This document shows positions 11,681 to 14,380 of a stretch of 64,000 bases of DNA, in pieces. The stretch is from NCBI GenBank assembly GCA_964016885.1, contig OZ024752.1:14384001-14448000 (forward strand), read 5' to 3'. A program made the position numbers and the translations under genes. The stretch is from Eledone cirrhosa. Its lineage: Eukaryota. The first letter of the stretch is position 1, and each line of letters starts with the position of its first letter. A model generated the notes under the pieces. The model was not told the DNA's origin, did not search any database, and saw only the letters and a list, made by a program, of their open reading frames with translations.

Positions 11681-13179
11681 TGATAATATCTAACTCACGC
11701 GAGAATAAATTCTATACGTACTTGATTAGCGAAAAATGGAAACTTCGTAATGGAAAGAGACAATTTTTAAAGCATACCTATATTTAGATTGTGTTATCAG
11801 ATGCTGTCATTTTGCTTTTAATACACAGGGAACATGGTGTTTTTCAGTCAATTGTAACAGAAAATATCGCGTTAGTGTTCAACGTAGTCATATGTGTATA
11901 TTTCCAATATTTTCTCGCAAATTATGTACATATATATGCATAAAAATATATATAACTGATAGATAACAGCTATGCCATTGGGTAATTTAATAAATTAATG
12001 TTACAGTATTATTTTCTTTTATTGGAAGAAATACAATTCCTGTTGTGGACTTGGGGGAATATACTACATTGAAAGAATATATTCATATTCTTCATAATAT
12101 TACATTTAATCCAGAGAGAGTAAAGAGTAACTCGATCTAAGAATATATTAGATTGTCTACATAATTGTACTGATATCGAACTGGGATTTCGAAAAAGGAA
12201 GGTATGAGCTTGTAATACTACACACTTTACACTATCAGAATATCTAACAATTGTATCTGGCTAACAATAGAGAATGGCGATACACACACACATATATATA
12301 TATATATATATATATATATATATATATATATATATATATATATATATATATATATATATATATATATATATATATATATATATATATATATTTATATATA
12401 TATTTATATATATATATATATATATATTTATATATATATTTATATATATATATATATTTATATATATATTTATATATATATATTTATATATATATATGTA
12501 AGTATGTATGTATACGTACATACATATATGTATACAGACGTACAGTAGCATGCATATATATATATATATATATATATATATATATATACATATATACACA
12601 TATGCATACAGGTACACATACATATATGCACGCATCAGTTTAGTCGACGTTTATTATAACGCCGGCCGCTTTGTTCGTTTGTTTGTCAACAAAGCGAACA
12701 GCTAAATGATAGCTAACAAGCTTGAAACTAGTACATCGTTCCTGTGTCAGTGTTGAACAAAAAGGTGACGTGGTTCCTTAACACCATATGGCATAAATTC
12801 AGGCTGTTCGCTTTGTTGACAAACAAACGAACAAAGCGGCCGGCGTTATAATAAACGTCGACTAAACTGATGCGTGCATATATGTATGTGTACCTGTATG
12901 CATATGTGTATATATGTATATATATATATATATATATATATATATATATGTATATATATATATATATATATATATATATATATATATATATATATATATA
13001 TATATATATATATATATATATATGCATGCTACTGTACGTCTGTATACATATATGTATGTACGTATACATACATACTTACATTTAAGTAAGTGCCATACTA
13101 AGAGTGAGAAATGAAATTTCGTTTTCATTTTTTTCAACTTATCGTTTTCGGTATGCCTGACCGATTTAACTCACTCAAT

Positions 13180-13227
13180 ATGCAAATTAGGCTGCTCAGC
13201 CGTTAATTTTCATAAGGAAAGTATATA
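13180..13227 (+). promoter_or_regulatory. octamer (ATGCAAAT) + PSE-like block, putative snRNA-type promoter; repeated at 13694
   Basis: tATGCAAATtaggctgctca...TAATTTTCATAAGGAAAGTATATA, conserved in diverged family I. Confidence 0.45.
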
Positions 13228-13261
13228 CTTCCGAACGTTCAACTATCTGGCAGATGGGTAA

Positions 13262-13304
13262 ACGGTGCTGATGATAGCTAACAAGCTTGAAACTAGTACA
13301 TCGT
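13262..13304 (+). ncRNA. canonical minimal type-I hammerhead ribozyme
   Basis: acggtg-CTGATGA-tAGCT-aaca-AGCTt-GAAA-CTAG-TA-catcgt; all three stems pair. Confidence 0.9.
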
Positions 13305-13775
13305 TCCTGTGTCAGTGTTGAACAAAAAGGTGACGTGGTTGCCTTAACACCGTATGGCATAAATTCAGGCTGTTCGCTTTGTTGACAAACAAACGAACAA
13401 AGCGGCCGGCGTTATAATAAACGTCGACTAAACTGATGCGTGCATATATGTATGTGTACCTGTATGCATATGTGTATATATGTATATATATATATATATA
13501 TATATATATATATATATATATATATATATATATATATGCATGTTACTGTACGTCTGTATACATATATGTATGTACGTATACATACATACTTACATTTAAG
13601 TAAGTGCCATACTAAGAGTGAGAAATGAAATTTCGTTTTCATTTTTTTCAACTTATCGTTTTCGGTATGCCTGACCGATTTAACTCACTCAATATGCAAA
13701 TTAGGCTGCTCAGCCGTTAATTTTCATAAGGAAAGTATATACTTTCGAACGTTCAACTATCTGGCAGATGGGTAA

Positions 13776-13818
13776 ACGGTGCTGATGATAGCTAACAAGC
13801 TTGAAACTAGTACATCGT
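13776..13818 (+). ncRNA. canonical minimal type-I hammerhead ribozyme
   Basis: Identical to 13262-13304. Confidence 0.9.
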
Positions 13819-14380
13819 TCCCGTGTCAGTGTTGAACAAAAAGGTGACGTGGTTGCCTTAACACCGTATGGCATAAATTCAGGCTGTTCGCTTTGTTGAC
13901 AAACAAACGAACAAAGCGGCCGGCGTTATAATAAACGTCGACTAAACTGATGCGTGCATATATGTATGTGTACCTGTATGCATATGTGTATATATATATA
14001 TATATATATATATATATATATGCATGCTACTGTACGTCTGTATACATATATGTATGTACGTATACATACATACTTACATTTAAGTAAGTGCCATACTAAG
14101 AGTGAGAAATGAAATTACGTTTTCATTTTTTTCAACTTATATATATATATATATATATATATATATATATATACAAATATATATATATATATATATATAT
14201 ATATATACAAATATATATATATATATATATATATATATACAAATATAAATTCGCGAGAATCGTTTTCAGCTCAGGAATTAACGAAAGTCAACGTCCGATA
14301 TGTGTGGCAAGCGCTCGAGGAATCATATGAATCAGAGCTGCAATATATATATATATGTGTGTATATATATACATATATAT

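Follow-up and report, generated by a model that had tools for sequence, protein, structure and literature searches.

Animal non-LTR retrozymes are described as non-coding tandem units, each carrying a type I hammerhead ribozyme (HHR) with a short palindromic stem III (PMC7229834; bioRxiv 10.64898/2026.07.22.740005). Penelope-like elements (PLEs) were named as a strong candidate for moving them by Cervera and de la Pena in 2020 (PMC7229834), and Li, Clavereau and Pollet (2026; bioRxiv 10.64898/2026.07.22.740005), on the basis of co-occurrence and pLTR trees, proposed that retrozymes derive from PLEs, with the mechanism still to be worked out. The available text of PMC13282606 does not mention ribozymes. 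For PLEs themselves, a one-sided tail and an inverted copy are already published (PMC8557442, PMC3846280, PMC8969392). The PLE protein PAc, from Anolis, a predicted dimer, cuts AT-rich DNA on both strands and extends both in vitro, with initiation at two internal positions that delimit the tail; the PAc HHR is dispensable for insertion and cuts only with protein (PMC11167929). Among open papers, we found none that deals with retrozymes in cephalopods, with tails or inversions in retrozyme insertions or with PLE twin priming; the supplements of PMC7229834 and PMC8557442 could list such families.

The window, a 64,000-nucleotide stretch of the Eledone cirrhosa assembly (3.0 Gb, AT-rich, and rich in microsatellites and Penelope-like ORFs), contains an array that resembles the animal non-LTR retrozymes in these properties and also in its low GC content (0.29), its predicted high degree of self-pairing, its thousands of dispersed copies and the co-occurrence of PLEs (Table 1). 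At least two consecutive complete type I HHRs lie head to tail, GC is below 50% and no protein is encoded: among frames of at least 120 aa, only TA-derived ones overlap the array, and the unit holds no RT plus GIY-YIG ORF. An LTR-type layout was not seen in the family loci inspected. An earlier note on this DNA had described units starting at 12706, 13271 and 13785, two complete HHRs and a truncated one, a (TA)n run inside each unit, a 5' inverted arm and a palindromic relative downstream, and this layout was confirmed throughout. The unit starts are 565 and 514 nt apart, the third unit is partial, the predicted cuts follow GUA, and the HHR copy at 12706 lacks the 5' strand of stem I together with three bases from the start of the core. 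The palindromic relative proved to be a short two-armed insertion of an older subfamily, approximately 90% identical to other such copies.

Table 1 Features of the hammerhead array and its surroundings, in window coordinates
Feature	Position	Strand
Left (TA)n target tract	12290..12495	n/a
Inverted 5'-truncated arm; outward 3' end is the fixed short (tail-less) end	12496..12702	-
5'-truncated HHR at head-to-head junction, start of the long arm	12706..12733	+
Unit 1, cut site to cut site, 565 nt	12734..13298	+
Unit 2, 514 nt; 72% paired as a circle (predicted)	13299..13812	+
Partial unit 3, 328-nt remainder, stops at the fixed long (tailed) end	13813..14140	+
Type I hammerhead motif, complete; core from 13268, predicted cut after 13298	13261..13305	+
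Second complete hammerhead motif; core at 13782, predicted cut after 13812	13775..13819	+
Internal (TA)n of unit 1, apex of long predicted hairpin	12909..13023	
Internal (TA)n of unit 2	13475..13537	
Internal (TA)n of unit 3	13989..14021	
Tail, approximately 60 nt, from short end to long end	14080..14140	+
Covarying helix, 5' strand; partner 13605-13612 in tail	13352..13359	+
Helix 13616-13622 / 13684-13690 around the long-end site; also predicted in family I	13616..13690	+
Octamer-like 8-mer shared with family I, in a predicted hairpin	13694..13701, also 13180-13187	+
Right (TA)n target tract	14138..14247	n/a
Older-subfamily insertion distinct from the array; a pair of short inverted arms, each cut off before reaching the HHR, with the short end on the left and the long end on the right	15225..15541	

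The array is one insertion of a young, dispersed, non-coding repeat family with a unit of approximately 500 bases and at least 10,000 copies. The reading given in the earlier note had depended on dispersed copies, and these are abundant: a 41-nt HHR pattern gave 10,032 exact matches genome-wide against 0 for the reversed-pattern control, so the matches are not due to chance. A looser HHR core, which takes in family I, gave 23,681 genome matches, a mid-unit motif across subfamilies gave 21,608, and one older HHR variant gave 917. All 40 of the best scored genome hits were 99 to 100% identical and spread over many contigs, and the family is therefore very young. Its units range from 434 to 565 nt, and its arrays reach up to 15 units per arm. 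The second hammerhead array of the window, family I (36721-38670, 468-nt unit), is a homologue: 247 of 401 aligned columns (62%) are identical, against 48% for shuffles, and profiles of four unit parts also match it. Family I arrays of more than 30 units are present on contig C1.

The HHR of the array is of type I. Its stem I has 6 to 7 pairs, its stem II carries a loop of four bases and its stem III is palindromic; the core segments read CUGAUGA and GAAA, and the site is GUA. Because loop III is only 2 nt and stem III is palindromic, the motif is predicted to work only as a dimer; metazoan HHRs have been described as acting as dimers (PMC4209133). The statement in the earlier note that its stems pair as well as those of family I was not upheld, because stem II closes with U.U rather than G-C: it has four Watson-Crick pairs closed by U.U, and stem I contains a G.U, whereas stem II of family I has five Watson-Crick pairs with the canonical G-C closing. 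In 16 of 22 HHR rows, no pair forms at the base of stem II (U.U here, C.A in an older subfamily). In the minimal HHRs of PLEs, helix II is long (7 to 8 bp) with G10.1-C11.1 and helix III is minimal (PMC4209133). Here this usual G10.1-C11.1 pair is absent and helix II has 4 bp with U.U, so the array HHR falls outside that class and is a short motif of canonical type I. Its U.U matches the description of axolotl HHR_Amex2, which has the same stem II mismatch and cleaves weakly alone and better as a dimer (PMC7229834). Among retrozyme dimers of Xenopus, 8 of 9 were reported to be without cleavage in vitro (bioRxiv 10.64898/2026.07.22.740005).

The earlier note had inferred a conserved ribozyme from covariation and had proposed a search with HHR models. 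The search gave nothing at gathering level and only a weak HH9 match (E 0.47); in the E-value mode of Rfam, look-alikes of hairpin microRNAs were produced by the palindromes and were rejected. The covariation itself is in favor of a conserved ribozyme in silico: in 22 HHR variants, hand-picked from 60 distinct ones plus further loci, 7 of 14 pairs change on both sides, the covariation score was reached by 0 of 500 shuffles, and the core is nearly invariant. The number of independent events is, however, small, because most changes belong to a single split between the array family and family I.

We then compared the predicted folds of the whole unit. Folded as circles, units of both families are predicted to adopt the same branched layout with 64 to 72% of bases paired. 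The consensus structure used for the covariation test of the subfamilies was built from the alignment itself, which biases the paired fraction of that structure upward. A fold z-score of -10 was set aside, because the TA hairpin makes it too extreme. The strand that lies 54 nt past the cut pairs with the start of the tail in an 8-bp helix; among 29 subfamily representatives (of 48), two positions of this helix differ on both sides, and family I shows such differences too. The long-end site is enclosed by a second helix, which requires sequence beyond the site, as expected for internal initiation. In both families, the short-end site is predicted to be in the loop of a small hairpin. The octamer-like motif resembles the snRNA-type promoter of newt satellite 2 and might be a promoter element, but it also sits in a paired region of the predicted fold.

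The main feature of the array, which was absent from the earlier note, is the Penelope-type structure of its ends. All copies end at one of two fixed 3' points approximately 60 nt apart, and 5' ends and inversion points are scattered. Among non-continuing ends at HHR-anchored loci, the 3' end ran straight into (TA)n in 40 of 40 long-end and 29 of 30 short-end candidates, against a background of 9 to 11%; the single short-end exception was an internal deletion, which leaves 69 of 69 true ends in (TA)n. The hand-scored HHR-anchored set comprised 50 insertions, 17 direct and 33 inverted, and one more that ran off its locus. Direct insertions had the long end in 11 cases and the short end in 6. 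Two inverted insertions have one arm stopping at internal TA; both ends were readable in the other 31, and 30 of these paired one short with one long end (P = 1.5e-8 against a coin toss), one of the short ends lying approximately 15 nt early and one 7 nt late. The exception, L079, has two long ends, and its arms belong to different subfamilies. At 40 loci chosen by the long end, the opposite end was short in 23 and long in 0, the rest being direct, nested, unreadable or run off. Of 20 loci chosen by the short-end pattern, 15 were in the family, with a long end opposite in 11, a short end in 0 and 4 direct or unreadable; 5 were not family members. The pattern counts behind these choices (short end 3,866, control 1,347; long end 446, control 0) are not comparable with each other and served only for picking loci, and all locus sets are convenience samples, mostly of contig C1 and of young copies. 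The same two ends are found in family I, where the tail measures approximately 70 nt. Seven direct insertions (L003, L016, L077, L194, L217, L225 and L226) start within approximately 12 nt of the long-end site, and their lengths are near whole unit numbers.

The two arms of an insertion are also closely related. Over a 76-nt diagnostic segment, available for both arms in 47 of the 49 inverted insertions, the arms differed by at most one change in 33 of 47, against 8.7% of 2,162 between-insertion pairs; in 7 of the 14 insertions with more than one difference, the arms were truncated inside the segment. Gene conversion after insertion could also have made the arms this similar. Of 94 terminal long ends, seven are those of tail-only arms that stop within 8 nt of the short-end site, where 0.9 would be expected if roughly 600 nt is assumed for each of 66 arms. 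The pairing of one short with one long end, the shared subfamily of the arms and the seven long arms that stopped at the short-end site suggest that both DNA strands were primed on one RNA. In L063, the units of the short arm match those of the long arm with an offset of one unit, which would fit a mixed multimer as template. In L061, the arms do not match, and each has its own private, periodic variants. The variant patterns in long arrays thus do not distinguish rolling-circle copying of a monomer from a linear multimer as template.

TA microsatellite targets and two fixed ends make a Penelope-type enzyme the likely agent of insertion, and several Neptune-like PLE families in this genome target (TA)n. 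The autonomous RT-GIY-YIG PLE of the window (6790-9745; RT-GIY-YIG region 8013-9659) is a 5'-truncated copy from a very young family with a 777-aa frame and at least 79 near-identical copies. It has an inverted arm and a 36-nt one-sided tail, the same end layout as the array, and a TG/TA-rich 3' UTR. What looks like an HHR with a U3-A8 core variant lies approximately 100 nt before its end. This active neighbor, 50 GIY-YIG loci and 20 Poseidon-like loci were considered as partners and rejected: they have targets or layout in common with the array but no sequence. Profiles of the four unit parts matched no PLE 3' end in 100 PLE loci representing approximately eight non-Naiad families, in which the 3' ends were read by eye in part only; the only profile matches there were neighboring insertions of the array family itself. 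No cross-mobilization between PLE families was found in a rotifer (PMC3846280).

Further elements were noted in the window and in the sampled loci. The 3' end of another Neptune-like family occupies 15640-15990, with a U3-A8 HHR at 15911 (also in L172, L183 and L191), and a head-to-head pair of another HHR-bearing PLE end (core 10970, minus strand) lies in (TA)n at 10860-11320. HHR-like cores at 4018 and 18479 do not fit the type I scan with palindromic stem III. Fragments of PLEs of other clades are found at 24079-25569 (an older family with copies approximately 80% identical), 26936-28020, 30424-31146, 53456-53878 and 56078-56452. In a Neptune-like family sampled at L142-L169 (for example L143 and L145), the tail region seems to hold a short (TA)n between two end points. 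A short palindromic TA-targeting element is present at 10305-10500 (also L031 and L228), and members of the same family lie inside the internal (TA)n of two retrozyme units.

We weighed three other origins for these insertions. An inverted arm could be produced in a PLE-type insertion by fold-back or self-priming of one cDNA, or from antisense RNA, rather than by separate priming on the opposite DNA strand. Self-priming has been proposed for PLE inversions (PMC3846280), both arms are of one subfamily, and the symmetric palindromic junctions of L048 and L072 fit it equally well. Most junctions are asymmetric, however, with either arm able to be the longer one, and the units adjoining the junction differ between the arms in L063 and L061. 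Fold-back copying would also leave unexplained why 30 of 31 insertions have their second end at the other fixed site, and we regard this origin as unlikely.

The units might instead be solo pLTR fragments of a PLE, each arriving as a single copy and later multiplied into an array by unequal crossing-over, and the HHR would then be a relic, following the route in bioRxiv 10.64898/2026.07.22.740005. The many single-unit copies, the weak-looking stem II and the period-4 and period-3 variant patterns in the long arrays of L061 and L064 would agree with this; the periodic variants point to local duplication after insertion. Against it, none of the 100 PLE loci yielded a parent PLE with such a pLTR, both arms frequently consist of several units and terminate at the fixed sites, two families only 62% alike have kept the HHR and the whole-unit fold, and successive subfamilies have spread as the complete non-coding unit. 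We therefore consider solo pLTRs a distinctly improbable source. Tandem arrays, an internal microsatellite and inverted arms are also characteristic of DINE-1-type elements, and some DNA transposons use TA targets, so that a non-autonomous DNA element that combines inverted ends with an internal microsatellite (a rolling-circle element of Helitron or DINE-1 type, or a MITE) has to be considered. This origin is largely refuted by the variable 5' ends and unequal arms, and fixed terminal repeats are lacking; moreover, the strand-specific RNA structure with G.U pairs and the covarying HHR are at odds with it, and it is scarcely credible here.

The internal (TA)n lies at the apex of the longest predicted hairpin in the unit. 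The earlier note had asked whether other copies carry it, and they do: a pure TA run of at least 10 nt is present in 298 of 302 units, and one of at least 20 nt in 222 (median 28, maximum 128). The median run is 17 in one homogeneous young subfamily and 10 in an older one, the oldest sampled units mostly have 16 or less, and family I has no internal TA run. Being short in older subfamilies and absent from family I, the run has expanded in place and is not needed for mobility. The earlier note had further suggested that the family may disperse its own preferred target. In part this agrees with the data, since nearly all units carry a run and foreign elements lie inside the internal TA in 5 of 326 unit contexts (one further context is an expanded tract). 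By contrast, no clear self-insertion into internal (TA)n was seen among the 326 contexts, and family I moves without a run. From approximately 850 TA tracts of at least 20 nt per Mb in two small samples, approximately 2.5 million would be expected genome-wide by extrapolation, of which the family supplies at most approximately 16,000, or approximately 0.6% of the estimated total. An apparent piling up of 5' ends at internal TA was dropped, as L228, L230 and L234 are nested insertions and L198 is an expanded tract. The internal (TA)n thus looks like a passenger and a landing site for other TA-seeking elements rather than an engine. It is a minor point that a mobile RNA hairpin can grow a TA tract later used by other elements.

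Taken together, we think it likely that the array arose when the RT and endonuclease of a PLE, acting in trans, copied a high-copy non-coding hammerhead repeat (an animal non-LTR retrozyme) into (TA)n in one insertion. Multimeric transcripts, or circles made by a dimeric hammerhead, would fold into the conserved branched structure. A PLE enzyme would bind the tail region and nick both strands of a TA tract for target-primed reverse transcription, one DNA 3' end priming at the long-end site and the other at the short-end site, in the loop of the small hairpin, on one RNA. The two cDNAs would stop at variable points and then be joined head to head; a long-primed cDNA that stalled at the short-end site would leave a tail-only arm. 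Local duplication and TA slippage would have changed the arrays afterwards, with the internal (TA)n as an expanded hairpin apex.

A more specific proposal, which we put forward tentatively and regard as somewhat more apt to fail than to hold, is that priming is ordered. A dimeric Penelope enzyme would prime both nicked strands on the same RNA at the two sites that bracket the tail, the trailing enzyme sometimes stalling where the leading one started. The signal would be the RNA shape, namely, the small hairpin loop and two closing helices kept at 62% identity, and retrozymes would hijack PLE enzymes by structure, without pLTR homology. If true, ordered twin priming would answer both the question of animal retrozyme mobility and that of the restriction of PLE tails to one end. 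With its thousands of insertions, its two fixed ends and its defined RNA fold, this young family is also a ready substrate for a priming assay of the PAc type.

Compared with known animal retrozymes, the array family has a unit longer than most of those in the available text of PMC7229834, a strict (TA)n target and an expanding internal microsatellite. Fixed 3' ends, a tail and inverted arms are not described for animal retrozymes in the available text of PMC7229834 and bioRxiv 10.64898/2026.07.22.740005, and no matching PLE pLTR was found among the 100 PLE loci. Non-autonomous PLEs of Chlamys such as MRC1 are likewise non-coding, form head-to-tail multicopy insertions and are moved by PLEs (PMC8557442), but they match their own autonomous family at the 3' end and belong to a clade without canonical HHRs, whereas the array family has an HHR and no such match. 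With PAc, the family shares two internal start sites, presumed ones here, in a stem-loop region downstream of an HHR (PMC11167929). With EN+ PLE insertions, it shares 5' truncation, partial tandems, an inverted 5'-truncated copy (33/50), a tail at one end (30/31) and a microsatellite or AT-rich target, here (TA)n (69/69) (PMC8557442, PMC3846280, PMC8969392). It differs from them in having no ORF and in its tail of approximately 60 nt, against the published 30 to 40. The combination of one short with one long end, which those papers describe as occurring "often" or "optionally", is nearly without exception here, so that the one-sidedness of the PLE tail can be quantified in this family. Elements of this kind are already known, and the array family is a further animal retrozyme whose insertions preserve an unusually clear trace of the way in which priming of the PLE type may proceed.
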